Below are positions 22,527 to 64,000 of a DNA stretch of 64,000 bases, in pieces. Both the position numbers and the translations under genes were made by a program. The notes under the pieces are model-generated. The model was given only the letters and a program-made list of their open reading frames with translations, did no database searches and was not told the origin of the DNA. The stretch is taken from the NCBI GenBank assembly GCA_023898365.1, contig CP060219.1, positions 133,743 to 197,742 of the forward strand, read 5' to 3'. The stretch comes from Candidatus Woesearchaeota archaeon (GTDB taxonomy: Archaea > Nanobdellota > Nanobdellia > Woesearchaeales > GCA-023898365). Each line of letters starts with the position of its first letter. Positions within the stretch are counted from its first letter, which is position 1.

Positions 22527-22529
22527 ATC

Positions 22530-35155: not shown

Positions 35156-35169
35156 AGTAGTAGTTACGT

Positions 35170-37739: not shown

Positions 37740-37794
37740 GGAACTTTACACCCCCAAAGTTGAAAAAATGAAAATAAAAAAAAATTGGAAGAAC

Positions 37795-42379: not shown

Positions 42380-43753
42380 TTAACTCATTTTTACTGGCCA
42401 GACATACTCCAATTCCTGATTGATCGCTTCAGGAGCAGTAACAACCACTTCTTCAGTTGTGCCTGTTCTTGGAATAAGTCGAATATCAAATGATTCGCCG
42501 CCTTCAATCGAAGAAGGTAAACGGAAATGTATTTTGATGACGTCATCTTCATGAACTGAACCAAGTGAATAATCAGGTCCACGTTTTGCATAGGTTACTG
42601 CGAACGTTCCTTGACCCACAGAAGGAGGTGAAACTGTAAACGTGTCGCCCGCATCAATAGTACGCTTAGCAGTCGTCAGACCATACGTTTCTAAATAACC
42701 TGCAGGATCACCAGCAAGCGTAGTAAAAGACGTCCTTGACTTGTCAAAGGTTGCACCAATCGAAGAAATATCTCCTCCTAAAGGAACGGCGACACCTTCT
42801 GTTGAGTTATATTGCACAGAAACATTTCCATCCGATGAGAAGAAAAAGATAGCGTGCGACTCATTCAAACCCATCCACTCATACTCTTGATCGTTATCAT
42901 GATCATTAGCTAAATAGTAAGGATTCCTAAATAGATGCACTTGATTTGCGTTAATGCCGTTCGAGTTGTTGTTTTTTCCAAAAATAGAAATTAGCCCATA
43001 TCCGGATATGTTTGTTAAAAAGTTTCCAAACTGACCCCCGCCAGAACCGATAAGTCGAACGCCACCAGATGCATTAACAGGCCTCACGTACTGAATTCCT
43101 GCACTGGAGACATTGATCATGAGCCATCTTGTTCTCGAAGCTTGACCAAAGCAAGGATTCGTGGCAAGATTTCCAACATCACTTCGACAAGATCTCGCAG
43201 TTTCATTGATGCCATCGCCGTCAATATCCACATTCAGATTGACAAAGGCAAAAAATCCAATTTGCACTTTATTTGTCCCATAAAAAGGAGCATGAAGTTC
43301 ATCAAATTCTTGATCAGAATAAATAGTATACCCCGTAAATGAGTACGCAGCCTCAGCATCAACACCAGCATATTGATAGGAAGATGACGCATCGCTTGCA
43401 CCCGCCAGAATAGTGAGTTGACTTAGTGACATAATATCAGAACCAGGAGTTAAGTGAGCTACAACTTGGACATCTTCCAAATAACTGTCCGTACCATCAG
43501 TAGCAGTAATTTCGGTAACCAGTAAGTGCGAAGCAACATTTGAGTTCACAGAATTTCCCGCTTGGATGGTAGTTTCTTGAAACGACCCACTCGTTCGAAT
43601 TATAACTAATGAAACAAATCCAGCAATAATTATCATAGACAAGACGACAAGCACTAATCCGAGACCAGCAACAGCTCGCTTTCCAACCATTGGACTACAC
43701 CCCACGATAATTCGTAAGTTGCACAATTTATAAAACTTCTCATTTAAGGACAT
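42380..43753 (-). CDS. Archaeal type IV pilin/archaellin-like protein with class III-type signal (probable start at the Met of MVGKRAVAG, about 43690)
   Basis: The N-terminus MVGKRAVAGLGLVLVVLSMIIIAGFVSLVII closely parallels archaellin/pilin prepeptides (…[20 protein letters not shown]…). A DIDGDGINE Ca-binding-like motif follows. The remainder is beta-rich. Confidence 0.5.
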   Translation of the reverse strand: MSLNEKFYKLCNLRIIVGCSPMVGKRAVAGLGLVLVVLSMIIIAGFVSLVIIRTSGSFQETTIQAGNSVNSNVASHLLVTEITATDGTDSYLEDVQVVAHLTPGSDIMSLSQLTILAGASDASSSYQYAGVDAEAAYSFTGYTIYSDQEFDELHAPFYGTNKVQIGFFAFVNLNVDIDGDGINETARSCRSDVGNLATNPCFGQASRTRWLMINVSSAGIQYVRPVNASGGVRLIGSGGGQFGNFLTNISGYGLISIFGKNNNSNGINANQVHLFRNPYYLANDHDNDQEYEWMGLNESHAIFFFSSDGNVSVQYNSTEGVAVPLGGDISSIGATFDKSRTSFTTLAGDPAGYLETYGLTTAKRTIDAGDTFTVSPPSVGQGTFAVTYAKRGPDYSLGSVHEDDVIKIHFRLPSSIEGGESFDIRLIPRTGTTEEVVVTAPEAINQELEYVWPVKMS

Positions 43754-47300: not shown

Positions 47301-49019
47301 TCACCTGCCTACATGAGTTGGGTGTTCATGTCCTGCCTCTTTTCTTCGATTCAAATGCTCTAAATGCACCATCTTTTCTTTTATGAATTTGTTTATGTCG
47401 GTTTTGTTTTTTTCAATCATTGTTGAAAAATGTTTTCCACCTAAAAAATGAGGCATTAAAACATATGTTGCGCCTTCATCGTACAATCTAACAGCATCAT
47501 CTATCTGATGCGACACCACTGCTATAATTGCTTTTTTATTATCCTCTTTAACTTTGTTTATTAATAACATGTTAGTGTCAATGAGAGGTATTGTCGAGAC
47601 AACCATTTTTGCCTTAGAAAAGTTAACCTCATTTAGAAATTCAGAATCTTCTGCATCCCCATATCTGCAATCGTATCCTTCTTTGAATAATTTTGTAATG
47701 ACTTCAGGATCATAATCAATAATGAGAAATTTCTTCTTTATTTTTTTTAGAGATTCCAAAATGTCGAACCCGATTCTATTATAACCAACAAGAATAATCT
47801 CATGATCGTCTTTCTCATGATACTTATGCTCATCAACTTTTCTTCCTTTTTTTTCAAATATGCTTAAATAATTTGATAGTGCTGGATAAAGTTTGTTGGC
47901 ATACAAGATCATATACGTCGATCCTGCAAACGTTATTAAACCTACTGCAGTGACTAAGGACAAGATTTCATTACTCACGTGACCTACTGAAACTCCTAAA
48001 GCAACAACAATCAAGGAGAATTCGCTTATTTGTGCAACTGTAAGTCCTGCTAAAAAACTGTTTCTCTTAGTATAACCCAAGAATCCCATAAGAGTCATTA
48101 CAATAATTGGATTGCCGATCATCACAAACAGAGAGAAAATCATGATAATGCCAATATTGTGATATAAATTTGAGAATGTCATTTGTGAGCCCAGCACAAT
48201 GAAAAATAGAACCAAGAAAAAATCCCTTAAAGGTTTCATTTTTGAACTTATCTCGAAATGATAAGGAGATACAGAAAGGGTCATTCCAGCAAGCAGCGCT
48301 CCCGCCTCAATAGAAAAATTGAGGTAGTGGAAAATTGTTGCAATGGCAAAACACCAACTAATTGAGAATAATAGTAAGAATTCTTGAGATTTGGCAATAA
48401 TCTTAATTACAGGCGGCATGATATACTTAGTGAAAATGAACAACAACAGCATTGCCCCCATACCTTTCAAAAAAGATCCTAGAGCTAAAGAAGTTAAACT
48501 AGAACCGTTACTAAGAGAAGAAATAACTAATAGAATCCCTATTGCTATGAAATCTTGCACAATCAAAAATCCTATAGCTATTCTCCCATATAATGATTCT
48601 AGGTCTTTCTTATCAGACAGCAGCTTCATGATAATAATCGTGCTGCTAAAAGTAAGTGCGATCGCAACATATACTGAAACCAGAGTGGATAGTCCTAATG
48701 CTTTTGAGATCAAAAACCCAACTGACGCAGTAAATACTACTTGGCCAATTCCTGTGATAAGGGATATTTTTCCAACATCTTTTATCACTTTTGGATTTAA
48801 ATTTAAACCCACAAAAAATAATAGCAGTGCAACTCCTATCTGAGAAAAAGCAGTCAGCGTATCAGAAGAATCAATTATGTTTAAGACAAAAGGACCAACA
48901 ATGATGCCGCTCAAGATGTACCCTATTATTGCTGGCTGCTTCAGAAGTCTTACAAAACCAGTAATAGCTACTGTTATAACAAGTATTTTGCTTAACTCAA
49001 CAAATATATCTGAACTCAT
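47301..49019 (-). CDS. Monovalent cation:proton antiporter (CPA2/Kef-type) with C-terminal TrkA-N (RCK) domain
   Basis: The N-terminal ~400 aa carry 12-13 TM segments. The Rossmann-type motif EIILVGYNRIGFDILESL follows. Confidence 0.8.
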   Translation of the reverse strand: MSSDIFVELSKILVITVAITGFVRLLKQPAIIGYILSGIIVGPFVLNIIDSSDTLTAFSQIGVALLLFFVGLNLNPKVIKDVGKISLITGIGQVVFTASVGFLISKALGLSTLVSVYVAIALTFSSTIIIMKLLSDKKDLESLYGRIAIGFLIVQDFIAIGILLVISSLSNGSSLTSLALGSFLKGMGAMLLLFIFTKYIMPPVIKIIAKSQEFLLLFSISWCFAIATIFHYLNFSIEAGALLAGMTLSVSPYHFEISSKMKPLRDFFLVLFFIVLGSQMTFSNLYHNIGIIMIFSLFVMIGNPIIVMTLMGFLGYTKRNSFLAGLTVAQISEFSLIVVALGVSVGHVSNEILSLVTAVGLITFAGSTYMILYANKLYPALSNYLSIFEKKGRKVDEHKYHEKDDHEIILVGYNRIGFDILESLKKIKKKFLIIDYDPEVITKLFKEGYDCRYGDAEDSEFLNEVNFSKAKMVVSTIPLIDTNMLLINKVKEDNKKAIIAVVSHQIDDAVRLYDEGATYVLMPHFLGGKHFSTMIEKNKTDINKFIKEKMVHLEHLNRRKEAGHEHPTHVGR

Positions 49020-49027
49020 TTTATTGA

Positions 49028-49525
49028 TTAATAGTCTTTTAACAATTTTATAATACTGCTTGGAGTGACAACACCAATTACCTTGTCGTTTTCATTGAGA
49101 ACAGGAACATATTCAAATCCTTTTTTCCCCACTAATTTTATCACTTTATTGATTGGAGTGTCAGCTCTGACAAATGATTTGTGCTTATTTATCATACTTA
49201 TAGCTGATTTGTGGAGAAATTCTCTTCTATACCCAATGTTAAGTAGTTGAACAAGTGGTTCGTATTTAACTTGCTGCAAAAAGAGCCTAACAATATCATT
49301 ATCACTAATTTCTCCTAAAAACTTTTTTTCTTTTGTCACAACAATACATGCATTCACGTGCTCTTTCTCCAGTTTTTTCAGTATCTTCTTCACCGTATCA
49401 TCGGGATACAATAATACTGGCTTAACCATTGCATCTTTCGCACATAATTGCTTAACTTCTAATTCGCTACGCAACCTTTCTGCATGTTCTCTTCTTTTGA
49501 CTTGAAAATCCGTTAACTCACTCAT
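49028..49525 (-). CDS. CBS-domain pair protein
   Basis: Two CBS-like repeats are present (…NACIVVTKEKKFLGEISDNDIV… and …VPVLNENDKVIGVVTPSSIIK…). The start overlaps the ATPase gene stop. Confidence 0.7.
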   Translation of the reverse strand: MSELTDFQVKRREHAERLRSELEVKQLCAKDAMVKPVLLYPDDTVKKILKKLEKEHVNACIVVTKEKKFLGEISDNDIVRLFLQQVKYEPLVQLLNIGYRREFLHKSAISMINKHKSFVRADTPINKVIKLVGKKGFEYVPVLNENDKVIGVVTPSSIIKLLKDY

Positions 49526-52209
49526 TGAACATACCTCCTTCCAAACATATTTGATTTCATCAACAACTTACTCAATTCCATAAATAGTAAACCAAATAAT
49601 GAAACAAGCAGTATGATTAGCCAATCACCCCAGAGCAAAGGAACAGTGCCAAATATTGCTTGCAAAGGAACCCAGTAAATAACAGCCAAATGAACCATTA
49701 CTGAAAGACAAACAGCCCCAAACAGCAGTTTGTTTGAAAAAGGATTTAATTTCGCCAAAGAAGGCGACAATGATCTGCTACTCATTACAGCAAACATCTG
49801 AATCATAACTAACGCAGTAAATGCTACTGTTTGCGCTTTAACTAAACTGACATCTTTGTATAAAACAAATAAGAATAATGTGCCAAGACCCATTATAAGA
49901 CCTATTATGATAATAGAAGCAAAAAGTTTATTTGAAATAGGTTTTTCATCGGGATCTCTTGGCTGCCGCTTCATAATCCCCTCTTCGGCAGCTTCAAACC
50001 CCAAACCCAAAGCTGGAGATGTATCCGTAAGCATGTTTATCAGGAGGATTTGAAGCGGCAGTAATGGCAATGGAAAATTAAGAAGAATAGCAGTAAGTAT
50101 AGTAATAATTTCTCCTGTGTTGCACGACAAAAGATATTTTGCAGATTTAATCATTTTGTCATAAATATTTCTTCCTTCCTTAATTGCACTAACAATCGAT
50201 GCAAAATTATCATCAGTCAGAATAGCTTTTGAAACTTCTTTGGCGACATCAGTTCCGGTAATACCCATTGCAATCCCTATGTCTGCTTTTTTAAGAGCGG
50301 GAGCATCGTTAACTCCATCTCCAGTCATGGCAACAATATGACCTTTATTCTGTAATACATTGACGATTCTAAGTTTATGAATGGGCATCGCACGAGCAAT
50401 TATTCTCACATCATCAATAATTTTCTCGAGCTCAAAATCGCTCATTTTTTCGACATCTTCACCAGATAATATCAAATCCCCTTTCCTAAATAACCCAATT
50501 TGCTCTGCTACTGCTTTTGTTGTTATTGCCTGATCCCCTGTTATGATCATAACTTTTATTCCAGCATCCTGACATTGTTCAACTGCTAGCCTAACTTCAT
50601 CTCTTGCAGGATCGATCATTCCGGCAAGACCAACAAAAACAAGGTTATTCTCCACGTTGCTTATCATATACTTTTTAGAATGAGGAAGTTCTCGGTAGGC
50701 CAATGCGAGAACTCGCAGGGCTTTTTTTGCATAGTTACGATTCACATCTAAAATTTTTTTTCTATCTTCTTTTGTGAGCTTTCTTATTACCCCATTTTCA
50801 AATATTTTATCGCATCTGTCAAGTAATAGATCGGGGGCGCCTTTAACATATGCTTCTGCCTTTTTACTAATATTGTTCTTAAAAATAACCGACATTCGTT
50901 TTCTGTCAGAATCAAAAGGTAATTCTTCAATGAAAGTAAATTTCTTCTGCAATTGTTTGTCATCAAGACATCCTTTTTTACCAAGAACTATCAAAGATCC
51001 TTCTGTCGGATCTCCTAAAATTTCACTTTTTTTTCCGTTCCTCACTAGTTTGGCATTGTTGCACATATACCCTATTCTGAAGAATAATTCTAATTTTTTA
51101 GGATTGATCTGTTTTTTTCCTTCGAAAAAATTCCCTTCAGGATTGTAGCCAGTTCCACTGACAGTAATAGTTCTATTACTGCAAAACAAGCTGGTAATAG
51201 TCATTTGATTTTTTGTTATCGTCCCAGTTTTATCACTGCATATAATCGTAGAAGCACCTAAGCTTTCCGCTGCGGGAAGCTTTTTAATTAGCATTTTCTT
51301 TTTTGCGAGGTCTTTTGCTCCTTTTGATAATCCAACAGTCACAATTACTGGAAGAGCGCTTGGAATTGTTGCTACAGCAAGAACTAGCGCGAACAAAAGC
51401 ATTTTTCCAAATGTTAGCGTGCCTTGTAATGTTCCAGAGATCAGTACAATGATAATTAAAATAACTGCGGCAATCCCTATTTGCTTTGCCAGTCTTTCAA
51501 ATTTAGCCTGAAGCGGAGTGATAGTTTCTTTTGTTGTTTGCAGCGAAGCAGCAATTTTACCAAATTCTGTTTTTATTCCAGTATTAGTAACAATACTTTT
51601 TCCTTTCCCATAGGTAACAGTGCAACCCATGAAAGCCATGTTTTCTTGATCTGATATGGAAATGCCAGCTTTGAATGGTTCTATTGTTTTCTTTGAAGGG
51701 ACGGATTCTCCTGTTAAGGATGCTTCATCAATTTGCAGGCTCGATATATCTAATAATCTTGAATCTGCCGGAACAATATCCCCTGCTTCAAGTAATAGAA
51801 TGTCACCTGGAACTACTTCTTTTGCAGGAATTTTTTGTTCTTCTCCACTTCGTAGGACTCTTGCTGTTGGAGAGGAAAGTTTCTCTAATGCTTCTATTGC
51901 TTTTTCAGCTTTATATTCTTGATAAAAGCCAAGCAAAGCATTTAGAATTACTATTGCAAAAATTGCTATTGATTCAACCAATTCGCCAAGGAAAAAAGAT
52001 ATGATGCCTGCAAGAATAAGCAGAAGGATAAGAGGATTTTTGAATTGACCGATGAAAATGTTCAGCAATCTAAACTTTTTTTCTTTAGGCAGTTCATTAT
52101 AACCAAATTCTTCCAATCTTTTTTGGGCTTCTTTTTTAGTCAAACCATACTCTGAGCTGTTCAACAACCTAATTGATTCCTTTGAACTAACAGCATAATA
52201 GTCGTTCAT
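49522..52209 (-). CDS. P-type ATPase, P2 (Ca2+/cation-transporting) family
   Basis: The phosphorylation motif DKTGTITKN, the TGES-like region, the hinge TGDGVNDAPALKKADIGIAMG and 10 TM segments are present. Confidence 0.9.
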   Translation of the reverse strand: MNDYYAVSSKESIRLLNSSEYGLTKKEAQKRLEEFGYNELPKEKKFRLLNIFIGQFKNPLILLLILAGIISFFLGELVESIAIFAIVILNALLGFYQEYKAEKAIEALEKLSSPTARVLRSGEEQKIPAKEVVPGDILLLEAGDIVPADSRLLDISSLQIDEASLTGESVPSKKTIEPFKAGISISDQENMAFMGCTVTYGKGKSIVTNTGIKTEFGKIAASLQTTKETITPLQAKFERLAKQIGIAAVILIIIVLISGTLQGTLTFGKMLLFALVLAVATIPSALPVIVTVGLSKGAKDLAKKKMLIKKLPAAESLGASTIICSDKTGTITKNQMTITSLFCSNRTITVSGTGYNPEGNFFEGKKQINPKKLELFFRIGYMCNNAKLVRNGKKSEILGDPTEGSLIVLGKKGCLDDKQLQKKFTFIEELPFDSDRKRMSVIFKNNISKKAEAYVKGAPDLLLDRCDKIFENGVIRKLTKEDRKKILDVNRNYAKKALRVLALAYRELPHSKKYMISNVENNLVFVGLAGMIDPARDEVRLAVEQCQDAGIKVMIITGDQAITTKAVAEQIGLFRKGDLILSGEDVEKMSDFELEKIIDDVRIIARAMPIHKLRIVNVLQNKGHIVAMTGDGVNDAPALKKADIGIAMGITGTDVAKEVSKAILTDDNFASIVSAIKEGRNIYDKMIKSAKYLLSCNTGEIITILTAILLNFPLPLLPLQILLINMLTDTSPALGLGFEAAEEGIMKRQPRDPDEKPISNKLFASIIIIGLIMGLGTLFLFVLYKDVSLVKAQTVAFTALVMIQMFAVMSSRSLSPSLAKLNPFSNKLLFGAVCLSVMVHLAVIYWVPLQAIFGTVPLLWGDWLIILLVSLFGLLFMELSKLLMKSNMFGRRYVQ

Positions 52210-52454
52210 CTATTTCGGCCCCACTTATCATTTAATAATAATCCTGTAAACGCAAAATAGATTGAGAGAATAAAAAATATGAGACCAGTTCCTAAATACA
52301 CCGTATACTGCTTTAATTGCCCAGGATATAGAGTTGACCAAATAATAACACCCGAGTAAACAATAATATAAATAACCGAAAAAATACCTAGAGGGCGTTC
52401 TATGTATCTTACTTTCATCCAAAAGGAATATCTTTCCATTTCTTCTTTTTTCAA
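52206..52454 (-). CDS. Small two-TM membrane protein upstream of the P-type ATPase
   Basis: The 82-aa protein is hydrophobic. It makes a 4-nt overlap with the ATPase gene. Confidence 0.4.
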   Translation of the reverse strand: MKKEEMERYSFWMKVRYIERPLGIFSVIYIIVYSGVIIWSTLYPGQLKQYTVYLGTGLIFFILSIYFAFTGLLLNDKWGRNR

Positions 52455-52531
52455 ATGGCGTTATGACATAATAGACCTTTTTAAAGAAGAAACCAAAAGT
52501 AAGTAAAAAAAAGGAAAAAAGAAGGAAAAAA

Positions 52532-53005
52532 TCACTTAAATAGGGAATTGCCGAGCGTCGTTAATTTAAGATATTTGTTATTACCTTTTTCTTCAAAAGA
52601 AACATAATTCATTTCGATTAAGAAATCAATTCTTTTTTTTATAGTAGGTTTTGTAATTTTTAATTTTTTTCTTAATTTTGACTGATTAATCAAAATTCCT
52701 TTTTTATTCTCATCATCAATCATTTGCATGATTTTCATCAATTCTTCCGGCATAAGCTTATTTATTCTTCTTTTGTAATATCCTAAGAATGCTTTTGCCA
52801 CAATTATAAATAAGGTAAGAAAGAGCATTAATTGAATTATGGAATGTACAACTGAACTACCTAATAAGTGATCGAAGATGTCATCCACTATTTCAGTGAT
52901 AATAAAAAGCGTAAAAAGCACAATAAAAAGATTCCTATCCTGCCGATTATAACTGATCATTTTTTCTCCAACGCACTTCGAGTAACTTCTTTGACAGATT
53001 CTCAC
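52532..53005 (-). CDS. Membrane-anchored winged-helix regulator (2 TM + C-terminal wHTH)
   Basis: The N-terminal TMs are LFIVLFTLFIITEIV and IIQLMLFLTLFIIV. The C-terminal segment is LRKKLKITKPTIKKRIDFLIEMNYVSFEEKGNNKYLKLTTLG. Confidence 0.5.
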   Translation of the reverse strand: MRICQRSYSKCVGEKMISYNRQDRNLFIVLFTLFIITEIVDDIFDHLLGSSVVHSIIQLMLFLTLFIIVAKAFLGYYKRRINKLMPEELMKIMQMIDDENKKGILINQSKLRKKLKITKPTIKKRIDFLIEMNYVSFEEKGNNKYLKLTTLGNSLFK

Positions 53006-53146
53006 ATAAGAATTTGCCTCAATAAACTTTGAAAAATGTCCCTCTATCGTATCATGATCTTGTAAGCTTTCTTTTGCTCATCGATCAGTATTCATACAAA
53101 AAGCTCCAAAAGCATCAGGATTTAAACATGTTTGCATGTAAAGCAA

Positions 53147-53914
53147 TTAATCATTATCCACTCGTGGTGCGAGGACAAAGCTTAACTCTAATTTGTTGAG
53201 TTGTTTGTACTCGATGTTGAGCGGGTAATCATCTGAGAATTTGAGCGTCATTTTATCTGCAAGTTTGCTTCCTTGCATGATTTTCTTTAAGTACTCAATG
53301 GAGTATTTTGATTTTGCTTCTTTTTCTACCACTATTTTTGTGGTGTCGTCGCCTTCCATTTCAACGTCCGCTTTTGTGAGGTCGTTTTGGGATGCGATGA
53401 TGAATTTGTTCTTTTCTGTTTGTAAGGTGACTGATTCACCAACAATATCCATATCATCAATTGCTTCTGCGAAGCTTGAGGAAAGGGTTACTATAGTTGA
53501 AGAAAAGGTTAGTCCTGGAACGCGTTGTTCTTGTTCGTCCATTTCTAAGAGTGGTAATTGGAAGGATCTCTTTGTTTTTGCTTTTAAGGTAATGTGAAGT
53601 TTTGAATCCTTAAGTTCGAGTGTGAGCGTGTCGTTTGGTCCTGCTCGTCTAAGAACTTGTTTGAGATTGTTCAGATTAATCGCGATTGTTTGCGGTTCTT
53701 TTATGTCATATTCGACAAAACAGGAAGATAGAAGCTTGAAAATGACCATGGCAACGTTTGCTGGGTCAATTGCGACGAGTTCCAAGCCATCGCTTGTGAA
53801 CTTCATGGAAGTTTCAGTGACAAGATCAGAAATTATGGTAATTGAATCTTTGAGCAATCTTGGTTCAGATAGTGTTAGTCTCATTTTCTCCTCCCAGTAT
53901 AAGAAAAAGATCAC
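53147..53914 (-). CDS. pcn: DNA polymerase sliding clamp PCNA (probable start at MRLTL, 53884)
   Basis: The protein is about 245 aa. The N-terminus ...SDLVTETSMKFTSDGLELVAIDPANVAMVIFKL aligns with archaeal PCNA (…EAAFKVTEDGISMRAMDPSRVVLIDL…). Confidence 0.8.
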   Translation of the reverse strand: MIFFLYWEEKMRLTLSEPRLLKDSITIISDLVTETSMKFTSDGLELVAIDPANVAMVIFKLLSSCFVEYDIKEPQTIAINLNNLKQVLRRAGPNDTLTLELKDSKLHITLKAKTKRSFQLPLLEMDEQEQRVPGLTFSSTIVTLSSSFAEAIDDMDIVGESVTLQTEKNKFIIASQNDLTKADVEMEGDDTTKIVVEKEAKSKYSIEYLKKIMQGSKLADKMTLKFSDDYPLNIEYKQLNKLELSFVLAPRVDND

Positions 53915-53960
53915 GTTCTCTTTATATATTTTTTACTTTTCAAGAGTATATAAAGGATGC

Positions 53961-55214
53961 CTATGGCCAGACGAAAACATCTCCGTTTTCAAGAATGCGT
54001 GCTTGTGCACCGTGTTGTTCTGCAAGGAGTTTCACGGAATTGTTTAATTCTGGCGTGCCATGTGTTGGCAGGACCAATTTTGGCTGTGCAAGCGTAAGAA
54101 GTTTCTCCCTATCAGGCCTTGTTGCGTGTCCCGAGGTGTGAATTTCTTTTGTGACGTTCGTGTTCCGTTCTTCAAGGAGAGCTTCAAGTGCTCGGCGATT
54201 CTCTTCATTTTCTGGTGTTGGTATGACTCTGCAACTAAAGATGACTTCGTCACCTTTCTTAAAGTTGTAAAGGCCCTTTCTGACCATACGCGAAAGAACT
54301 GCTGAAGGCTCAGCTTGATGGCCAGTGACAAGAAGGACGTGCTGCGAGGGATCAACAAGTGATGCAAGAAAATTTTCGATCTTCTTTGGACGTTTAAGCA
54401 CCCGAACGTCTTCAAAATCAATACCTATCTCTTCGGCTGCTTTCACATACTTGTGCAAAGAATTGCCAAGGAGGGTGATTGTTCGACCAGAACGCTTTGC
54501 GCAATCTATAATGGTCTTGATTCGGGAAATATGTGATGCGAAAGTCGTAACGACAACCAAACCTTTTTGTTTGGTAATTTTTCGAAGCAAAGAACACATA
54601 TCCCGCGCAACCGACTGTTCTGTAGGATTCGTTGTCATCACTTCATTATTCAAACTGTTCAAAATAAGAATATCTGGCTTTGCAGCGACAATCCCTTCAT
54701 AATCAGGAGGTTCGCCAAGTGTTGGGGCATCATCTAAACGAAAATCATTCGCGTAAAGAATTCTTGCTGTTTTGGTTTTGACAAGAATAAGTGCGCTTTG
54801 GATCGTAGAATGTGTCACATGAATAAATTTTACTTGAATATTCCCGACCTTGATGTTGCGCTCGAAAGACACAGGTTTAAGATTGAGCTTCTTATTATAC
54901 TGTCGGATAACTGCCAAAGAAAAAGGCGTACCATACACGGGAAAAGGAAGGTGTTTGTAAAATTGCAACGCGCCCAAATGATCAAGATGCGCGTGAGAGA
55001 TAAACAAGGCCTTAACCTTTTTTTTCACATCCGTAATATTAGGGATTGCTCCAATACTGCGCAACGCCTTCAAACTCATTTCGGGAAGCGCATTCTTGCT
55101 GAAACGATCGACATGAAGACCAAGATCGAGTAAGAGACCATCACTTCCTTCTTCAATGTACGTGCAATTCCTACCTATCTCGCCATAACCACCCAAAGGA
55201 ATAATTTTTACCAT
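53961..55214 (-). CDS. Archaeal RNase J-like beta-CASP ribonuclease
   Basis: The N-terminus IIPLGGYGEIGRNCTYIEEGSDGLLLDLG matches RNase J, and the HxHxDH metallo-beta-lactamase motif ISHAHLDHLG is present. The protein is 417 aa. Confidence 0.7.
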   Translation of the reverse strand: MVKIIPLGGYGEIGRNCTYIEEGSDGLLLDLGLHVDRFSKNALPEMSLKALRSIGAIPNITDVKKKVKALFISHAHLDHLGALQFYKHLPFPVYGTPFSLAVIRQYNKKLNLKPVSFERNIKVGNIQVKFIHVTHSTIQSALILVKTKTARILYANDFRLDDAPTLGEPPDYEGIVAAKPDILILNSLNNEVMTTNPTEQSVARDMCSLLRKITKQKGLVVVTTFASHISRIKTIIDCAKRSGRTITLLGNSLHKYVKAAEEIGIDFEDVRVLKRPKKIENFLASLVDPSQHVLLVTGHQAEPSAVLSRMVRKGLYNFKKGDEVIFSCRVIPTPENEENRRALEALLEERNTNVTKEIHTSGHATRPDREKLLTLAQPKLVLPTHGTPELNNSVKLLAEQHGAQARILENGDVFVWP

Positions 55215-56175: not shown

Positions 56176-56312
56176 TGCGGGGGAAGGGATTCGAACCCTC
56201 GAACCTACTTAAGGACTAGATTCCTCAAAGGCGCAAACGATCCAAATGATAGTTTGCCTGCGTAAGCAGTTTCTTGAGTCTAGCGCATTTGACCAGACTT
56301 TGCTACCCCCGC
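56176..56312 (-). tRNA. tRNA-Leu(CAA) with 51-nt intron after position 37/38
   Basis: The reverse complement gives acceptor GCGGGGG/CCCCCGC with discriminator A. The D-arm is GCAA...AUGC. The anticodon stem CUAGA/UCUAG carries loop CUCAAGA, giving anticodon CAA. A 51-nt insert lies between the loop and the 3' stem strand. A long variable arm, the T-stem GAGGG/CCCUU and the loop UUCGAAU follow. No CCA is encoded. Confidence 0.7.
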
Positions 56313-56732: not shown

Positions 56733-56989
56733 TTTTGTCCAGTTGAGAGCGCGTCATGGAGCGCTTGAATGCGTTCTTCAACAGTGCTAATATTTTCTGT
56801 CCAATTGTCCAGTTCGTCGTCTTCTTGACGTTTAAGGTCATTGATTGATTTGAGCGTTAGTTTTGCTTCGTTTACTTTTTCTTTAAGCACTGCTAGGATG
56901 CCAAGCACCTCTTTGTATTCATCTATTTTGATAAACGTTGGATTTTCCATAGTTTTAACCTCGTTCAAACAAGCGGCTATCAATTGCAA
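56729..56989 (-). CDS. Small helical hypothetical protein, 86 aa
   Basis: It is an overlapping operon member. No motif was recognised. Confidence 0.4.
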   Translation of the reverse strand: MQLIAACLNEVKTMENPTFIKIDEYKEVLGILAVLKEKVNEAKLTLKSINDLKRQEDDELDNWTENISTVEERIQALHDALSTGQK

Positions 56990-58193
56990 GAAGTTTTTCT
57001 TGCACCTCGTTCATTTTGTCATACCAAGATTGCATTGCGTTATTGAGTTTGCTATACTTCAAAATATACCCGTCTATGCGTCGAAACTGCTTGGAAACGT
57101 GTTGTTTGACATTGTCCACATCATGAAGAAAGTCGTGGTATTCCCATTTTTCTACAAACACGCCTTCGTCGTCTTGCACCAAGGATTGTTCTGCGATTGG
57201 AAGATCATTTTTTGCAATAAGCGTTGGGGGAACAAATGCTGGCAGTTCTTCTGATGGCGCAACATCTTGTCCGAAGTCAGGAAGCACAGAAAGATCATCT
57301 GCTTCTTTCACCGGTTCAGGTTTCACCTCATCTTCAGGTCGGACTTGAATAGGTAAATCAATTCCTTCATCAAGATTAAGATCTGCAATGTCTTTTGTTA
57401 AATCATCATCAAACTCAGGCATTTCTTCAGATTCTTTTTCAGGAACCACTTCTTTTTTGGGAAGTGATGGGCTTACCAAGGAAACATCATCAGATTCCGG
57501 AGTAGTATCCGTACTGCGTCTTCCAAACATTGAAGGTTCGTCAGTAGCATCTTGCAGTACAAAATCTTTTTCTGCATCTTGCATGGCCGTGTCAGGAAGC
57601 ACTTCTTGGCCAATAATGCTCTCTTCATCAGATGATCCTTTCGCTCCGACAACGGTTGGCGTCATAAGTTCTCCTTCTTCATCTTGCAGTTGTCCAAAAT
57701 TTCTTGAAGGAGGAGGAGCTTGCAAAGTAGATTTCTTTTCTGTTGCTCCAGGCAAAAGGTCTGAATGATCATGTGAAGGGGCATCTGAAAAGAATGAATC
57801 TTCTGAAGAAGCATCAGATTGTTCTTCACCATCAACCTCTTGTTTTGTTGCTAGAGAGGAAACGGGAGATGGCTTCGCACTCGCAGCTGAAAACGCTGAA
57901 GGAATTTCTTGCAAAGGAGGCTCTTGAGAAGGAGCGGGCACACTCTTCATCGTAGGTGGTGGCGGAACAGCCAAATCACCAGAACTTGTTTCAAGCAGAG
58001 GGTTAACGTCCTCTGGCTTTTTCTTTCTACTAAATAATCCCAAAAATCCTACACCTCTAATCTTTGTTTTATCTAAACAGTATTTATATACTTTTCTGTT
58101 TAGAAAAAAATATTTTTTGTCATTCAAAACGTAATGGTTTCCCCAATTGAAGGGCCCATTACCGTTGTTTGTGGCAACGCTTTCTTTCCCCAT
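56955..58193 (-). CDS. Hypothetical protein with long acidic/Pro-rich disordered core and helical C-terminal domain, 412 aa (start uncertain; overlaps the beta-CASP gene end)
   Basis: The central ~250 aa are D/E/S/P-rich and low complexity. The C-terminal segment ...FVEKWEYHDFLHDVDNVKQHVSKQFRRIDGYILKYSKL... is helical. Confidence 0.4.
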   Translation of the reverse strand: MGKESVATNNGNGPFNWGNHYVLNDKKYFFLNRKVYKYCLDKTKIRGVGFLGLFSRKKKPEDVNPLLETSSGDLAVPPPPTMKSVPAPSQEPPLQEIPSAFSAASAKPSPVSSLATKQEVDGEEQSDASSEDSFFSDAPSHDHSDLLPGATEKKSTLQAPPPSRNFGQLQDEEGELMTPTVVGAKGSSDEESIIGQEVLPDTAMQDAEKDFVLQDATDEPSMFGRRSTDTTPESDDVSLVSPSLPKKEVVPEKESEEMPEFDDDLTKDIADLNLDEGIDLPIQVRPEDEVKPEPVKEADDLSVLPDFGQDVAPSEELPAFVPPTLIAKNDLPIAEQSLVQDDEGVFVEKWEYHDFLHDVDNVKQHVSKQFRRIDGYILKYSKLNNAMQSWYDKMNEVQEKLLAIDSRLFERG

Positions 58194-59413
58194 GCAAGCA
58201 TGGCTTCAATTGCTTCAGGATCTCCATGCTGCACAATAAGCTTTTTTGGATTGATGCTTTCAATAAATGCATGTAAATGATTTTGATCTGCATGACCTGA
58301 AAACATGAATTGTTTCACATCACAGTCAACTTGGGTTTTCCAACCTTTTAGGTAAATTGCACGTTCTTCGAGAAGCATTCTTCCTTGGCATCGATGGCAT
58401 TGATAGCCTGTTAAGAAGATTGCTGATTTCGGATCATGCCAAATATGTTTTATGTAATGAATAACCGGGCCTCCTTGCACCATACCTGATGTCGAGACAA
58501 AAATTCCTGGTCTTGTTGCAGCATAATTTCTTCGTTTTTCACTTGAAACAAAACGCACCTTTGAAAACATTTCTTTTAATGCAGGCCTTCCTTGGAGATG
58601 CCGTTCAGAATTTCTTAGAACTGTTTTGGTTATTTTAGTGGCCATTCCATCAAAATACACAGGAACATCCCATTTTGCGCGAGAGAGAATTATGAGAATG
58701 TCTTGCGCTCGTCCAACGGCAAAAACAGGAATAACGACGCGCCCACCATTTTTTACAACACGTTCAACTTCGCTCAAAAACTCTTCAGCAAGTTGGGCCT
58801 TCTCTGGTAGAGGCCTGTTTCCATAGGTTGATTCAGTTATCATAATATCAATTGGTGGAAGATGCGCATCAGCAGGCGCCATGAGAAGTTGTTTTCCAGG
58901 ATTAAAATCACCCGTGTAGAGAATATTCTTCCCTTCGGTTTGAAGCAAGAGCATGCCAGCACCAGGTATGTGTCCTGCGTTATAAAAACTGAATGCATCT
59001 CCTCGATGTTCGTATTGCGTGCCAAGACGTACAGGTTTAACATATAAGGAGATTTTTCGCAGATCTAAACTATCATATGCTGGATGCAAATGTTTGATGC
59101 GAGCTATCTTGTAAGAATCTTTGAGAAGAATTTTTATCAAACCCCACGTTTGTGGCGTCATGTAGAAAGGAAATTTTACTTTTTTTGCAGAAAGTTCATG
59201 CACAAGAAGTGGAAGTCCTCCTGAATGATCAAGATGAGCGTGGCTCAAAAACAACGCACTTACTTGTTCAGGATCTTTGAGTCCTTCAGGATAATCATAC
59301 CCTGACGAACTGAATTTGATTCCGTAATCGAACAAATATCTATTCTTTGATCGTAACTCAATACAACTACGGCCTACTTCATTAGCTGCGCCATGAAAAA
59401 CCAACTCACCCAT
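58124..59413 (-). CDS. aCPSF2-like beta-CASP metallo-beta-lactamase ribonuclease (no KH domains)
   Basis: The N-terminus is ELVFHGAANEVGRSCIEL. The HxHxDH motif LSHAHLDHSGGLP and the beta-CASP motifs (…TGDFN…, …SGHAD…) are present. The protein is 429 aa. Confidence 0.7.
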   Translation of the reverse strand: MGELVFHGAANEVGRSCIELRSKNRYLFDYGIKFSSSGYDYPEGLKDPEQVSALFLSHAHLDHSGGLPLLVHELSAKKVKFPFYMTPQTWGLIKILLKDSYKIARIKHLHPAYDSLDLRKISLYVKPVRLGTQYEHRGDAFSFYNAGHIPGAGMLLLQTEGKNILYTGDFNPGKQLLMAPADAHLPPIDIMITESTYGNRPLPEKAQLAEEFLSEVERVVKNGGRVVIPVFAVGRAQDILIILSRAKWDVPVYFDGMATKITKTVLRNSERHLQGRPALKEMFSKVRFVSSEKRRNYAATRPGIFVSTSGMVQGGPVIHYIKHIWHDPKSAIFLTGYQCHRCQGRMLLEERAIYLKGWKTQVDCDVKQFMFSGHADQNHLHAFIESINPKKLIVQHGDPEAIEAMLAWGKKALPQTTVMGPSIGETITF

Positions 59414-59546: not shown

Positions 59547-61253
59547 ATGGTTGCGCCAAGAGAGACTATGAAAAAAACCCAGATAGTGTTCATTATCATC
59601 CTCGGGTGCTGTATGATAAGTTCCTTCGCCAGTTCTTGCAATGAAAACATGACAGGATGTTTTGACGTAGAACTAACACTCCACCAAACAGAACCAGTAC
59701 TTAACACAACATACACGAATTTATTTCGATTGGAAAATTTAGATCATGAACAAGGAGTGGAAGAACAACTACGCATTTTTGTAACCTATAATGTATCATG
59801 GCATAACGAAACGTACAATAATTCATTTCTCAAGACAATCAACTCCTATTCAACGACCGGAACAGGAACGTTTACGTTTTCTGCAAACACAAGCCATCTT
59901 CTCTGCGGCGAAATCAGAAACATTTCACAAAACGGAGAGCAGATTAGTGATCCCCACCCGGAAAATAATGTTCTTTGCACCGCAATTGTTTTCGATAACA
60001 CCAGTAATGCAACGGTCAACGAAACAGGTAACGCAACAAACGAGTCTGAAGAAGGAGTTTGCAATCAATCAGTACGTTTCCTCGTTTTGCAGGCGCTAAG
60101 CAATCACAGTTTTCAATTTAAACCAATAATTTCTGCAGAACAACATTGGACGCTCACCTATTGGATAGAAGATCTTGATGGTGTCATATTCAAACAACCT
60201 ATGAACACAACAAACACGAACTGGAAATCATTTACTCCCAGCTCAAGTGTTACGGGAGAAAAAATATTCAGGCTTTACGGACGTCTCAACACAACGTGTG
60301 CACAAACAGAAAACTCAACGTTTCTTTTGCTCAAAAGAGCGCAAGAAGAAAATGAAGAATCATCAGAAAGTGAATGCGTAGAAGATGAAGAAGAACAACA
60401 AGAATCAGCATTGTCATTTACCGCATTACCTGAGGAAATAATTGCAGGATCGACAATTTCGATAAAAGTCAAGGCATACCGAGGAAATACGCTCAAAAGG
60501 AAAGTGACGTTGAGAGGTCCTGGCAATCAAATGAGTTTTTTGATTAACGACAAATATGCTGAAACAGAAGTGACCATTCCCTTCACTATTGAGAAGAGTT
60601 GTTCACTCGAAGAAGGACCAGTTGATTTTATCCTTTCAGGTCTTGACGAAGAAAAAATTATTACCGCGCAGCTTTTCAGACCAACTCAAGATGAGTGCCA
60701 ACCAGCAGAAACGAATGCGACTACCAGCTCACCAAGTCAAAATAGCATTGCAAGTTTTTATACGCGAAAGAAAAAATATGCGCCGCACATAAATTTTTCC
60801 TATCGTCTTGAGCAAGAGTCAAACGACAGCTCAATACTACTTATCATTCCACATCTCCTTCTCAATACAACGACAAATGTGCCTGCTAAGCCAGGCAACA
60901 ACACCGTTTTTTTTCTGCTTAAAGAAGGAGAAGACATAATTGATTTTTTTGAATATCAGTATTTTCTTGAAGATGATTCGCTTAGTCTTGGCGAAAGTGA
61001 AGATCAAAAAGAATCCGAATCCGACTCGTCGAACAACACTCAACGTGAAGACAGTGATCGTTCTCCGCTTACTGGTTTAACCATTTCAGTTCCAAAGAAT
61101 GAGGGGAAGAAAGTAATCGCAATTAGTGTTTTAATCATGCTCGGCATAGCAACATTCGCTGTTGCGCTCATCAAACGAAAGAACATTATTTACGCGGTAC
61201 AACATAGTAGCTTTTATCTTCATAAGAAGAATTCAAAGGATGGAAAGGGTTGA
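59547..61253 (+). CDS. N-glycosylation-sequon-rich surface protein with signal peptide and C-terminal TM anchor, 568 aa
   Basis: The signal peptide is MKKTQIVFIIILGCCMISSFASS. Many NxT/S sequons and acidic stretches are present. The C-terminal TM AISVLIMLGIATFAVALI is followed by KRKN. Confidence 0.55.
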   Translation: MVAPRETMKKTQIVFIIILGCCMISSFASSCNENMTGCFDVELTLHQTEPVLNTTYTNLFRLENLDHEQGVEEQLRIFVTYNVSWHNETYNNSFLKTINSYSTTGTGTFTFSANTSHLLCGEIRNISQNGEQISDPHPENNVLCTAIVFDNTSNATVNETGNATNESEEGVCNQSVRFLVLQALSNHSFQFKPIISAEQHWTLTYWIEDLDGVIFKQPMNTTNTNWKSFTPSSSVTGEKIFRLYGRLNTTCAQTENSTFLLLKRAQEENEESSESECVEDEEEQQESALSFTALPEEIIAGSTISIKVKAYRGNTLKRKVTLRGPGNQMSFLINDKYAETEVTIPFTIEKSCSLEEGPVDFILSGLDEEKIITAQLFRPTQDECQPAETNATTSSPSQNSIASFYTRKKKYAPHINFSYRLEQESNDSSILLIIPHLLLNTTTNVPAKPGNNTVFFLLKEGEDIIDFFEYQYFLEDDSLSLGESEDQKESESDSSNNTQREDSDRSPLTGLTISVPKNEGKKVIAISVLIMLGIATFAVALIKRKNIIYAVQHSSFYLHKKNSKDGKG

Positions 61254-63906
61254 GTTCAAGATGAGTATTTGTTGAAACGTCAATCATTCTTCGCCACACT
61301 TCTTGTGACACGTCAGGAGACATCGGATAGGATTGTTCGAGGAGGCCATGATATGCTTGAGAAGTAAACAGCAATTGCCCCACATTAAATCCTGAAAAAA
61401 CTGCACCTTTTCCTCTACGAGAATATCTGCGTAGATCTGATTGACCTCGTTCACTTGAAACATTTAAGAAACCAATATTCCCTCCAAGTCCAAGAACAAA
61501 ATTTGCTTCTCGCGTATCACCACCAATATCTGCAGTGCCCGATTTCCCCCACAACAATTCTTCCCCTGCTTGATCGGTTAAAAAAACGCCAGTTGGCCAC
61601 GTTCGAAGACGCTGCCTCCACTCAGCTCGGTCTTTCTCAGATGGTGCAATAAGTGAATTTGGAGGCAATCCTTCGTAACCATATGAATAAGGAACAATCC
61701 TCGCATATGCTTGCGTTGCAGAAGCTGCAAAGGGTGAAAGCCCTCCATGAGGACTTATAGCCCGCTCAACAAAGACCGTGTCAGCACTACCGTTTGAAAC
61801 AACAAGTTTCGAAAACCAGCGAAGACCTGGAACTTCAATTGGTGCAGCTCCTTCGAATAGTACTTTGTTTGTTGTCAGCGCACCATGGTTTTGAAACATT
61901 AACAGGTAGGTAAGCGCATCATCAATATGAAGGGGCACTGCGCCAAGAATAGTTGCGTCAATCTTTGGATCTAATTGGTGTGATCGAGAAAATCCGATAC
62001 GCTCATTCCAAAATGAAGCAAGTTCTTCAGTGATAGTTGGCCTGCCTTCTTCTCTTCGTGCATTGTTTCCAATATTAAGAAGATTGACAAAATAGCGGTT
62101 TATTGACTTGCCAAGCGCAAAACTAAAATCGACAAGACCCCAATATTTATTTTTAAAATTTTTTATAGGAGGAGAAAATACGGGTCTTCCTTTCCAGTTA
62201 ATTCGTTTGTAGCGAACAGGATTAACGGGCGTGTCAGAAAAAATTTCTCTATCAAGTCCTTCTTCGATAAAGAAAGGAGCGTAGAGAAGCTTGCAAATAC
62301 TTCCAATTTGCCTTGGTTCATCAAACGAATGACCAGTTGCTTTTCCTCGGGTATTACTAAAAGCGGCAATGACATCGCCTTGTCTGCTTGCAACAATTCC
62401 CGTGAGATTAGGATCATCATCAATCGATAAGAGCGTGTCAAGAGATCCGAAGAGGCGAGGAACAAGCGTCTGTTGTTGATAAGGAAAATTTGTCAACGTC
62501 GTATGCACAGCAAGGTTTCTTGCAAGCAATTCTTCTCCCGTTTGTTTTGAAAGGTAACGCAAAATTTCACTTGCACGAGCATAGAGTGTGTTTTTTAACG
62601 CAATAGCGCCAGCGTTTTCCAAAGGTGCAGGTTTGCGGCCAGCAATTGAACTTGCAAACGAAAGAGATGAAGGAGGAGTAATACCATTTCCTTCAAGCGT
62701 TGGAGCAATTCTATAATGAAAATCATCTTGAAACAATTGTGCGAGAGAATCAACATATGCTTGCTGCGTGTTTGGTTCTCCTAAAAATCCTTCTGAATTA
62801 ATCGAAGGTTTGTTTGTTGAGGTGAGAAGCATCATCATTTCTGTTTCTGAAAGTGGCGAAGTGCGACCAAAATGGTGTAAAGATGCTGCGGCAAGGCCTC
62901 TTGAAAAAACACCTCTGTCAAGGCCAAACGGGATGTTATTAAGCGCGAGTTCGAGTAAGCGATACTTAATTACTTCTCTTACTTGTCTTTCAGGAAGCGT
63001 TGCTGCAAATGTTCGCTCCGCATCAGAAAAGAGGGGTGTTGTGGAAGGGTCAGCTACAAGAACAGAACGCGTAATTTCCTCAAGTTTTCTACCATAATCT
63101 CGTTCAAATTGTTTGTCGTCGCCAAGACGCATGAGTTGTTGCACAATAGTGCTGCTTCCTTTTGGAGATCCTGGTTTACTATCACTTCGCAGACCTCGAA
63201 CTAAGGAAGGCAAATCAATTCCGAAAAGCGAATATCCTTCGACCCCCTCCCAGTAATTCAAGAATTGAAGAACTTCAGAAGGCCTATACGTGGTGGTGTC
63301 TTGATGCCACGCACCTTTTTCAAAAAATTGTGAGTAAAATCCTGGAAGTACCTTCCCCTCTGAATCGCGAAGAACGGTAAGCGAATCTGGCAAGAAAATA
63401 GGAGGAGGAGTTCTATTTCGAAACATTTCTTTGCCTTGCACATCATAGACAATGAATTGTCGATTATGAGCAAATCCTTGCAAAGAAGCGATTTGATCCT
63501 CAAGAGAGTGTTCGTGAAGTTCCCTTTCAATACTCTGCGATAGCGCGTCCCAATCATGACCTTTGCGTTCAAGCACCACATCAATTCCTTTGAAAAGAGC
63601 TTGTTGGGTGAGTCCTAGACCTTCGTTTTTCCCTCCAAACCGCGCCACAAATGCTGCTGCAACGTTATCGTTACCTGATCGAAGGACAGCAGTTCCTACC
63701 TCTTGAACAAGTGACCGATAAGGAACGTGTGCAAGGGAGACGCCTATTGCAGATCCTGCGGCAAGAAGAGAAGCTGTTTTGAGAAGAGAGCGACGTTTTC
63801 GCGGAGCTCGTTCCTTGCTTGGAGAACCTTCTTTATTGAAATCTATCGTATAGAGTGGATCCTTCACAGATCCTTCTAAAGAGGGTTTAGAATCAGGCGC
63901 AACCAT
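61186..63906 (-). CDS. Bacterial-type bifunctional class A penicillin-binding-protein-like enzyme (GT51 peptidoglycan glycosyltransferase + transpeptidase) with Tat-like signal
   Basis: The Tat-like signal is RKRRSLLKTASLLAAGSAIGVSLA. Three GT51 motifs are present: EGVEGYSLFGIDLPSLVRGL, GSSTIVQQLMRL...YGRKLEE and KYRLLELALNNIPFG...AASLHHFGRTSPLSETEMMMLLTSTNKPS. The transpeptidase motifs are SxxK (GSICKLLYAPFF), SxN (GKSINRYFVNLL) and K(S/T)G (WGKSGTA). Confidence 0.65.
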   Translation of the reverse strand: MVAPDSKPSLEGSVKDPLYTIDFNKEGSPSKERAPRKRRSLLKTASLLAAGSAIGVSLAHVPYRSLVQEVGTAVLRSGNDNVAAAFVARFGGKNEGLGLTQQALFKGIDVVLERKGHDWDALSQSIERELHEHSLEDQIASLQGFAHNRQFIVYDVQGKEMFRNRTPPPIFLPDSLTVLRDSEGKVLPGFYSQFFEKGAWHQDTTTYRPSEVLQFLNYWEGVEGYSLFGIDLPSLVRGLRSDSKPGSPKGSSTIVQQLMRLGDDKQFERDYGRKLEEITRSVLVADPSTTPLFSDAERTFAATLPERQVREVIKYRLLELALNNIPFGLDRGVFSRGLAAASLHHFGRTSPLSETEMMMLLTSTNKPSINSEGFLGEPNTQQAYVDSLAQLFQDDFHYRIAPTLEGNGITPPSSLSFASSIAGRKPAPLENAGAIALKNTLYARASEILRYLSKQTGEELLARNLAVHTTLTNFPYQQQTLVPRLFGSLDTLLSIDDDPNLTGIVASRQGDVIAAFSNTRGKATGHSFDEPRQIGSICKLLYAPFFIEEGLDREIFSDTPVNPVRYKRINWKGRPVFSPPIKNFKNKYWGLVDFSFALGKSINRYFVNLLNIGNNARREEGRPTITEELASFWNERIGFSRSHQLDPKIDATILGAVPLHIDDALTYLLMFQNHGALTTNKVLFEGAAPIEVPGLRWFSKLVVSNGSADTVFVERAISPHGGLSPFAASATQAYARIVPYSYGYEGLPPNSLIAPSEKDRAEWRQRLRTWPTGVFLTDQAGEELLWGKSGTADIGGDTREANFVLGLGGNIGFLNVSSERGQSDLRRYSRRGKGAVFSGFNVGQLLFTSQAYHGLLEQSYPMSPDVSQEVWRRMIDVSTNTHLELNPFHPLNSSYEDKSYYVVPRK

Positions 63907-64000
63907 ACTTAGAGCGAATCAACAACCATTTATATATGTTACTCTTGTGAAGTGATAATTCATCTCTTTTTTGGTGGTTTTCGAGGAGAAACAACCCGTT

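Follow-up and report, generated by a model that had tools for sequence, protein, structure and literature searches.

Textbooks treat murein synthesis as a bacterial trait; its signature enzymes, the class A penicillin-binding proteins (PBPs), are the targets of beta-lactams and moenomycin. PBPs are also known from moss and glaucophyte plastids, and insect genomes encode genes acquired by horizontal gene transfer that complete the peptidoglycan pathway of an endosymbiont. Among archaea, Woesearchaeota and Pacearchaeota encode large, peptidoglycan-directed extracellular lytic murein transglycosylase proteins that have been interpreted as tools to attach to or attack bacteria (PMC8204110, PMC9723730), and archaeal peptidoglycan hydrolases have been shown to kill bacteria (PMC12352652). 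By contrast, a study of pseudomurein reported little or no evidence of transglycosylase/transpeptidase orthologues in archaea (PMC10117817), and our literature searches for archaeal or DPANN GT51 enzymes or class A PBPs returned only lytic transglycosylases and hydrolases, with no synthase-type PBP. Here we describe a class A PBP-like gene in a 64,000-nucleotide stretch of DNA (referred to throughout as the window; contig CP060219.1 of assembly GCA_023898365.1, positions 133,743 to 197,742 of the forward strand) from the DPANN archaeon Candidatus Woesearchaeota archaeon. The product is annotated in GenBank as USN45722.1, 'transglycosylase domain-containing protein' (Candidatus Woesearchaeota archaeon), on a contig of 1,131,583 bp, yet has apparently gone undiscussed in the literature. 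The evidence base is one gene in one metagenome-derived genome.

The protein resembles the lytic transglycosylases of Woesearchaeota and Pacearchaeota in being bacterial-derived, related to peptidoglycan, predicted to be exported and encoded in the same archaeal group, and like them it hints at interaction with bacteria. The lytic proteins, however, carry degradative GH23 domains, reach ~3000 amino acids (aa) and occur clade-wide, whereas the protein described here is a 906-aa singleton of biosynthetic type (GT51 plus PBP). Its membership of the SLT/GH23 'murein transglycosylases' was considered and rejected, as no SLT/GH23 match was obtained and the sole Pfam family matched by the protein was PF00912 (biosynthetic GT51). 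With the archaeal peptidoglycan hydrolases (PMC12352652) it shares a bacterial origin and bacterial peptidoglycan as the sole plausible target, but those enzymes are peptidases and amidases with demonstrated lysis, whereas the protein described here has a predicted fold of synthase type. In the plastid and insect cases, too, a non-bacterial genome encodes a murein-pathway enzyme of bacterial origin that acts on a bacterial-type compartment or partner; there, unlike here, the remaining pathway and the target compartment are known.

The gene is an uninterrupted open reading frame (ORF) on the minus strand at 61186-63906, as had been noted in an earlier reading of the DNA letters and their translated ORFs (the sequence-only reading). 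The product was compared by hhalign to a family profile of 82 PBPs, comprising 79 PBP1a-family genes from GTDB species representatives and 3 Escherichia coli proteins (PBP1a, PBP1b and PbpC). By this approach, a single alignment of aa 177-866 to residues 48-799 of PBP1a was obtained (probability 97.5%, E 6e-12), in which the GT51 module, linker and transpeptidase follow one another on one chain, collinear with PBP1a over ~690 aa. An hmmsearch with the same profile returned two collinear domains, one for the glycosyltransferase (18.1 bits) and one at aa 530-677 (11.2 bits, single-target E 4.4e-6). Ninety-four columns are at least 90% conserved across the 82 PBPs; 89 of these were aligned to the query and 47 were identical, including all catalytic residues. 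The protein very probably has the predicted architecture listed below: a leader, a ~115-aa lineage-specific region, a GT51 glycosyltransferase, a linker and an acyl-serine transferase.

61186..63906, minus strand: class A PBP-like coding sequence, complete from ATG to stop, 906 aa plus stop (ORF list and family searches)
63724..63798, minus strand: predicted leader, aa 37-61, KRRSLLK (aa 37-43) followed by TASLLAAGSAIGVSLAHV (motif and hydropathy)
63379..63720, minus strand: lineage-specific region, aa 63-176, no family or profile match (hhalign of aa 1-176, probability 0.2%)
62782..63378, minus strand: GT51 peptidoglycan-glycosyltransferase-like module, aa 177-375 (Pfam, BLASTP and hhalign)
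62332..62781, minus strand: interdomain linker region, aa 376-525, collinear with the linker of PBP1A-family proteins
61309..62331, minus strand: penicillin-binding (acyl-serine transferase or DD-transpeptidase-like) module, aa 526-866 (profile methods)

Overall identity to class A PBPs is only ~22%. NCBIfam matches were partial, collinear and weak: PBP_1c (TIGR02073) matched aa 177-282 and PBP_1a_fam (TIGR02074) matched aa 450-611, the latter covering profile positions 207-365 of 535, and both fell far short of their curated cut-offs (35.6 versus 508.75 bits for PBP_1a_fam; 40.5 versus 494.2 bits for PBP_1c). A phmmer search of the protein against PDB sequences gave nothing at E<=10, and a single-sequence AlphaFold2 model was unusable (mean predicted local distance difference test score 34.4, predicted template modelling score 0.24). 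By profile comparison, the protein is a remote homologue of class A PBPs and the equivalog of no named PBP. Its divergence far exceeds what would be expected of any wall-building PBP. The PBP1A family (TIGR02074; E. coli MrcA/PBP1a) is the closest described system: module order is the same, and the motif 1 Glu, GxSTxxQQ, RKxxE, SxxK, SxN and K(T/S)G are all shared, as is a basic N-terminal stretch followed by a hydrophobic segment. Unlike that family, the protein is undetectable by PF00905, no longer has motif 5 or the Asp, Phe and His of GT51 motif 1, and carries an extra ~115-aa region before the glycosyltransferase and insertions at aa 283-309 and ~680-760. Its leader is too weakly hydrophobic for a typical signal anchor, and its host is archaeal. 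ODD, UB2H and PbpC C-terminal domains are lacking; the linker, specifically, is devoid of the ODD insertion found in E. coli PBP1a.

The glycosyltransferase module was recognised by Pfam, hhalign and BLASTP alike. With the full-length protein PF00912 (Transgly) reached 43.1 bits, and with aa 171-430 it reached 47.4 bits (E 1.9e-12), relative to a gathering score of 27, with the match spanning profile positions 26-157 of 178. Similarly, hhalign of this part alone gave a probability of 96.2% (E 2.6e-9), and BLASTP aligned the region to E. coli PBP1a, PBP1b and PbpC at E 2e-5 to 2e-3. The following GT51 motifs were located.

63247..63249, minus strand: E220, putative catalytic Glu of motif 1, equivalent to E86 of E. 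coli PBP1a (BLASTP and family alignment)
63136..63159, minus strand: GSSTIVQQ, aa 250-257, motif 2 (GxSTxxQQ; alignment)
63076..63090, minus strand: RKLEE, aa 273-277, motif 3, with the putative second catalytic Glu, E277 (alignment)
62935..62967, minus strand: KYRLLELALNN, aa 314-324, motif 4 (KxxxLxxYxN; alignment)

The sequence-only reading had recognised all five GT51 motifs, of which about four survive. In motif 3, R273-K274-x-x-E277 aligns to R139-K140-x-x-E143 of PBP1a, and motif 4 keeps K314, L318 and N323, with its Tyr replaced by A321. Motif 1 (EDxxFxxHxG), by contrast, is partly degraded: only the catalytic Glu and a G-I-D are retained, while the positions held in PBP1a by D87, F90 and H93 are taken by G221, G224 and L227. 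Motif 5 (RRxxVL) is gone, as R221 of PBP1a aligns to Q381 and no RR is present at the aligned position. An insertion of ~26 aa (aa 283-309) separates motif 3 from motif 4.

Recognition of the second module was less straightforward. Of the two Pfam families that were to be checked by HMMER, PF00912 exceeded its gathering score as just described, whereas PF00905 (Transpeptidase) gave no match even at E<=10, either with the whole protein or with aa 430-906. Because a failure of PF00905 was half of what the sequence-only reading had named as evidence against itself, the transpeptidase claim needed a separate test. With the C-terminal half alone (aa 430-906), TIGR02074 matched at E 4e-4, and hhalign gave E 2.2e-5 and a score of 48.3, ~10 standard deviations above the scores of 100 shuffles of the same segment (17.3 +/- 3.1, maximum 28.2). 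BLASTP placed aa 532-610 over the region from SxxK to SxN in PBP1a (E 0.033) and in PbpC. Only profile methods point to the predicted transpeptidase as a module, and its evidence is the weaker of the two. The three active-site motifs are as follows.

62290..62301, minus strand: S536-I-C-K539, SxxK motif with the putative nucleophile Ser (BLASTP and family alignment)
62098..62106, minus strand: S601-I-N603, SxN motif (BLASTP and family alignment)
61534..61545, minus strand: K788-S-G-T791, KTG(T) motif (BLASTP and hhalign)

As proposed earlier, SICK, SIN and KSGT are present in this order, and each was found to align with a catalytic motif of E. coli PBP1a, PBP1b or PbpC. In the BLASTP alignments to the E. 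coli PBPs, the SxN context ALGKSIN lies over GLGQSKN; RQIGSICK lies over RQVGSNIK of PBP1a, and LWGKSGTAD over LAGKTGTTN of PBP1b. In PBP1a numbering, S536/K539 correspond to S465/K468, S601/N603 to S524/N526, and K788-S-G-T791 to K716-T-G-T719. Conserved residues of the module include R532-Q-x-G-S536-x-x-K539, D558, P560, N583, S601-x-N603 and G787-K-S-G-T791. An extra ~50-60 aa lie between the SxN and KTG motifs (roughly aa 680-760), and hhalign of the last ~200 residues alone (aa 700-906) was not significant (E 0.14), so that assignment of KSGT rests on collinearity and local context. Taken together, the hhalign probability and the motif alignments bear out the central proposal of the sequence-only reading, namely that the protein is homologous to class A PBPs, with a GT51 module ahead of an acyl-serine transferase and the catalytic residues kept, and the two residues singled out for proper alignment, the motif 1 Glu (E220) and the SxxK Ser (S536), are both retained.

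An alternative reading is a changed substrate. The GT51 module may have been repurposed to polymerise another polyprenyl- or dolichyl-pyrophosphate-linked envelope glycan, with the PBP module acting as a peptidase, esterase or scaffold, or the protein may be a non-catalytic binder. The extreme divergence beyond the core motifs, the loss of Asp, Phe and His from motif 1 and of motif 5, the lineage-specific N-terminal region and insertions, and a location adjoining the gene of a surface protein of the heavily N-glycosylated type (see below) all fit such a change. We know, however, of no GT51 enzyme with a substrate other than lipid II-type precursors, and a GT51 enzyme of this kind was without precedent in the literature searched; moreover, a peptidoglycan-type substrate is the simplest explanation for both modules and the three PBP motifs having been retained together. 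Repurposing is thus considered unlikely.

The N-terminus bears on where the enzyme would act. Residues 37-61 comprise a twin-arginine-like n-region and the only hydrophobic segment of the protein, and may be either a twin-arginine translocation (Tat)-type signal peptide or a weak signal anchor. The maximum Kyte-Doolittle 19-aa mean of this leader was 1.52, whereas the signal and anchor of the adjacent surface protein reached 2.3-2.75. This weak hydrophobicity appears more in keeping with a Tat-type signal peptide than with the robust signal anchor that ordinary class A PBPs carry. The Tat-type leader proposed in the sequence-only reading is kept as a possibility: its motif, KRRSLLK, is present, but its scores were under the cut-offs of both Tat-signal hidden Markov models (PF10518, 13.1 bits versus 22.7; TIGR01409, 14.4 bits versus 16.7). 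TatC was not found among the ORFs scanned, which covered ~74 kb of the 1.13-Mb contig.

The setting of the gene is archaeal. Archaeal markers in the window include PCNA, an RNase J-like protein, an aCPSF-type beta-CASP nuclease, an Rrp4/Rrp41/Rrp42 exosome operon and an ATP-dependent DNA ligase. The flanking genes that had been called archaeal from the letters (beta-CASP nuclease, RNase J-like protein, PCNA and an intron-containing tRNA-Leu(CAA)) proved to be real. Features that define this setting are listed here.

1368-3563: surface-layer (S-layer) protein
42380-43753: archaeal flagellin/pilin-like protein
56176-56312, minus strand: class II tRNA-Leu(CAA) with a ~51-nucleotide intron after the anticodon (Rfam, 45.9 bits)
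58124..59413, minus strand: aCPSF-type beta-CASP nuclease, the archaeal synteny anchor
59547..61253, plus strand: surface glycoprotein-like protein, 568 aa, convergent with the PBP gene
63929..63937, minus strand: ATATATAAA, archaeal TATA-box-like element at -31 to -23 from the PBP gene ATG

The tRNA was found by Rfam, whereas ARAGORN at default settings reported zero tRNA in the whole window. The 568-aa protein has an N-terminal signal, a C-terminal transmembrane segment, 23 N-x-S/T sequons and no Pfam match, and its gene is overlapped by the 3' end of the PBP gene by 68 bp. The guanine-plus-cytosine (GC) content of the PBP gene is 0.43, in line with the window, and its codon usage diverges from that of the remaining window ORFs by a Jensen-Shannon value of 0.0265, which ranks second lowest among 41 ORFs. 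By the comparison of GC and codon usage with its neighbours that the sequence-only reading had called for, the gene was thus indistinguishable from the archaeal genes of the window. A box of the same type as that of the PBP gene lies at about -30 before the beta-CASP gene (59442-59434 region) and before many neighbouring genes. These boxes suggest that the PBP gene and most window genes would be expressed as leaderless or short-leader transcripts from archaeal promoters. Across the window, a (W)TATAAA box recurs ~30 nucleotides (-35 to -20) before many ATGs, for example those of the ORFs at 43819, 45723, 39871, 22695 and 47301.

An assembly artefact, whether a bacterial fragment joined by mistake to archaeal sequence or a contig placed in the wrong bin, deserves attention given that bacterial-type genes in DPANN bins are sometimes contamination. 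This explanation was rejected. GC content and codon usage are the same as those of the archaeal neighbours, the promoter box ahead of the gene is like those of the archaeal genes around it, and the gene shares a 68-bp 3' overlap with a neighbour of the archaeal lineage. An independent assembly (Logan, run SRR12358676) carries the identical gene with both junctions, and no bacterial protein is similar enough to have been the donor of a recent fragment. On these grounds a chimera or contaminant, which the sequence-only reading had asked to be excluded, is very unlikely; we give the artefact an exceedingly small probability. We are accordingly confident, from composition, promoter and assembly, in assigning the PBP gene to the Woesearchaeota genome as a native gene.

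The origin of the gene was approached through its relatives. In a word-indexed search of 5.8 billion clusters the query was its own sole match, at E<=1e-3 as well as at E<=10, and an exhaustive phmmer scan of 1.84 billion representatives gave the same outcome. A scan of IMG/VR with the 906-aa protein returned no relative and hence no sign of a viral or mobile-element vehicle. Synteny was compared at five related Woesearchaeota loci, chosen from the relatives of the beta-CASP nuclease, all of which share a neighbourhood with beta-CASP, RNase J and PCNA genes. A PF00912 gene was absent within 10 kb in all five. One of these loci (L087, GCA_053936925.1) retains the convergent surface-protein gene adjoining the beta-CASP gene without the PBP gene; its homologue of the 568-aa protein is 551 aa in length (8206-9861), 25% identical and matched at E 6e-14, and genes of the MJ0538 family and MgtC occupy the position of the PBP gene. 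Thus, the PBP gene lies at a synteny break and looks lineage-specific.

Horizontal transfer of bacterial genes into DPANN genomes is common. In all likelihood the gene descends from a bacterial class A PBP by such a transfer, one that is old and fully ameliorated to host codon usage and an archaeal promoter. Acquisition from bacteria, as suggested from the letters, is the only reasonable origin.

An old transferred gene could also be a functionless relic, drifting to loss with residual motifs. The protein is a singleton without relatives, its family scores are very weak, and its motifs are partly degraded, all of which would be expected of a decaying gene. Yet the 906-aa ORF is intact, with no frameshifts or stops, in a streamlined ~1.1-Mb genome, its promoter box is well placed, and at ~22% identity it has kept every catalytic residue as well as half of the columns that are most conserved in the family. 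Retention of these positions despite such divergence indicates purifying selection on the active sites, and the keeping of both active sites argues for selection on catalysis or substrate binding rather than for a dead relic, which we regard as improbable.

A second possibility is that the Woesearchaeon builds its own lipid-linked disaccharide-peptide precursor, from which the enzyme makes a murein-like layer or a ring at the division site. Chlamydiae and some plastids retain a minimal peptidoglycan of this sort. Catalytic residues of both modules are kept, the gene has an archaeal promoter box and host codon usage, and a synthase rather than a hydrolase is the type of gene expected for polymer building. 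No mur, mraY, ddl or flippase gene was detected among the 55 longest ORFs across ~74 kb (the 64-kb window and 10 kb beyond), shorter ORFs being unscanned, although most of the genome lies beyond this interval. The window contains an S-layer protein gene, and the related loci (5/5) are without the PBP gene. Essential synthases remain recognisable, whereas this one is an orphan in which PF00905 is undetectable; wall-building PBPs are strongly conserved, and the failure of PF00905 to match therefore argues against housekeeping murein synthesis. Furthermore, murein production is known in no archaeon (PMC10117817). An endogenous wall is thus rather doubtful: the S-layer-type envelope, the relatives without the gene and the drift outside the motifs indicate that housekeeping wall synthesis is not the likeliest role.

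Our best explanation overall, held with moderate confidence, is that of a native class A PBP homologue, derived by horizontal gene transfer, with an accessory surface function directed at a partner. More specifically, and more tentatively, we propose that the protein may be an accessory enzyme or binder, either exported or weakly anchored, that targets the peptidoglycan-type substrates of a bacterial partner. The weak twin-arginine-like leader would carry the protein across the membrane or tether it weakly to the outer face. Outside the cell, E220, GSSTIVQQ and R273-K274-x-x-E277 of the GT51 module could bind a polyprenyl-pyrophosphate-linked disaccharide and catalyse glycosyl transfer, while the Ser/Lys/Ser-x-Asn/Lys-Ser-Gly set of the PBP module would form an acyl-enzyme with stem peptides terminating in D-Ala-D-Ala. 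The target would be peptidoglycan, or its precursors, of a bacterial partner or prey, which might be bound, remodelled or captured covalently through stem peptides at the site of contact. Such a role would have a parallel in the lytic transglycosylase proteins of Woesearchaeota and Pacearchaeota.

Several points weigh against this proposal, in addition to the PF00905 result and the sub-threshold Tat scores. GT51 enzymes normally draw lipid II from their own membrane, and the known hosts of DPANN archaea are archaea, not bacteria. Topology is thus the weak point, access of an archaeal surface enzyme to the lipid II of its partner being problematic. Activity and substrate are predicted from motifs only, and glycosyltransferase activity may be weak, altered or lost, given that motif 1 lacks its Asp, Phe and His and that motif 5 is gone. 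An endogenous precursor pathway is possible, as the scan for mur genes left ~94% of the genome (~1.06 Mb) outside. In addition, the nearest relatives of the beta-CASP nuclease elsewhere are only 54% identical, so that the orphan status of the PBP gene may in part reflect sparse sampling of the lineage rather than fast evolution. Two bolder versions are quite improbable: that the Woesearchaeon polymerises and cross-links a lipid-linked disaccharide-peptide into a layer or division ring, or that the acyl-enzyme chemistry of the PBP module grafts the cell covalently onto the peptidoglycan of a bacterial host.

Other features of the window and its surroundings were also recorded. The 10 kb past the right end of the window, upstream of the PBP gene (L001, 1-9947), encode a 128-aa membrane-like ORF, an Exo_endo_phos nuclease/phosphatase, EamA and MFS transporters, a pyridine-nucleotide disulphide oxidoreductase, a bacterial-type UvrB, an HhH-GPD glycosylase and an ABC ATPase, with no cell-wall-related gene among those identified. 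The product of a 412-codon ORF at 56955-58193 (minus strand) is acidic, of low complexity and rich in Pro, Ser and Glu, and matched no family. The ORF as listed shares 70 nucleotides with the 3' end of the beta-CASP gene; the Logan gene call has a later start (362 aa). Clusters of large proteins at 18294-26572 and 32267-39639 are mostly unassigned or give weak Ig-like, DUF11, Big_9 or DUF4215 matches, and are probably surface or secreted proteins. The stretch at ~48000-54000 is low in GC (0.34-0.36 versus ~0.41 elsewhere) and encodes a P-type cation ATPase, a CBS-domain protein, a Na+/H+ exchanger with a TrkA-N domain and a 157-aa ORF of 28% GC; the stretch may have been acquired separately, as an ion-transport island. 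A 370-aa tRNA-guanine transglycosylase (31120-32232, minus strand; PF01702, 398 bits) is sized like the bacterial queuosine-type Tgt and is shorter than the archaeosine enzyme with its PUA domain. Some DPANN archaea are reported to have a bacterial queuosine pathway (PMC8204110).

A natively integrated class A PBP homologue with predicted active sites intact is thus present on a 1.13-Mb DPANN archaeal contig. Its extreme divergence combined with motif retention makes it useful for defining the minimal catalytic core of GT51 and PBP enzymes. If the less likely reading of an endogenous polymer were true, the gene would be evidence of a murein-like polymer in Archaea. If the partner-directed role is true, it would represent a new tool of inter-domain interaction, of synthase type, that complements the lytic enzymes of this clade.

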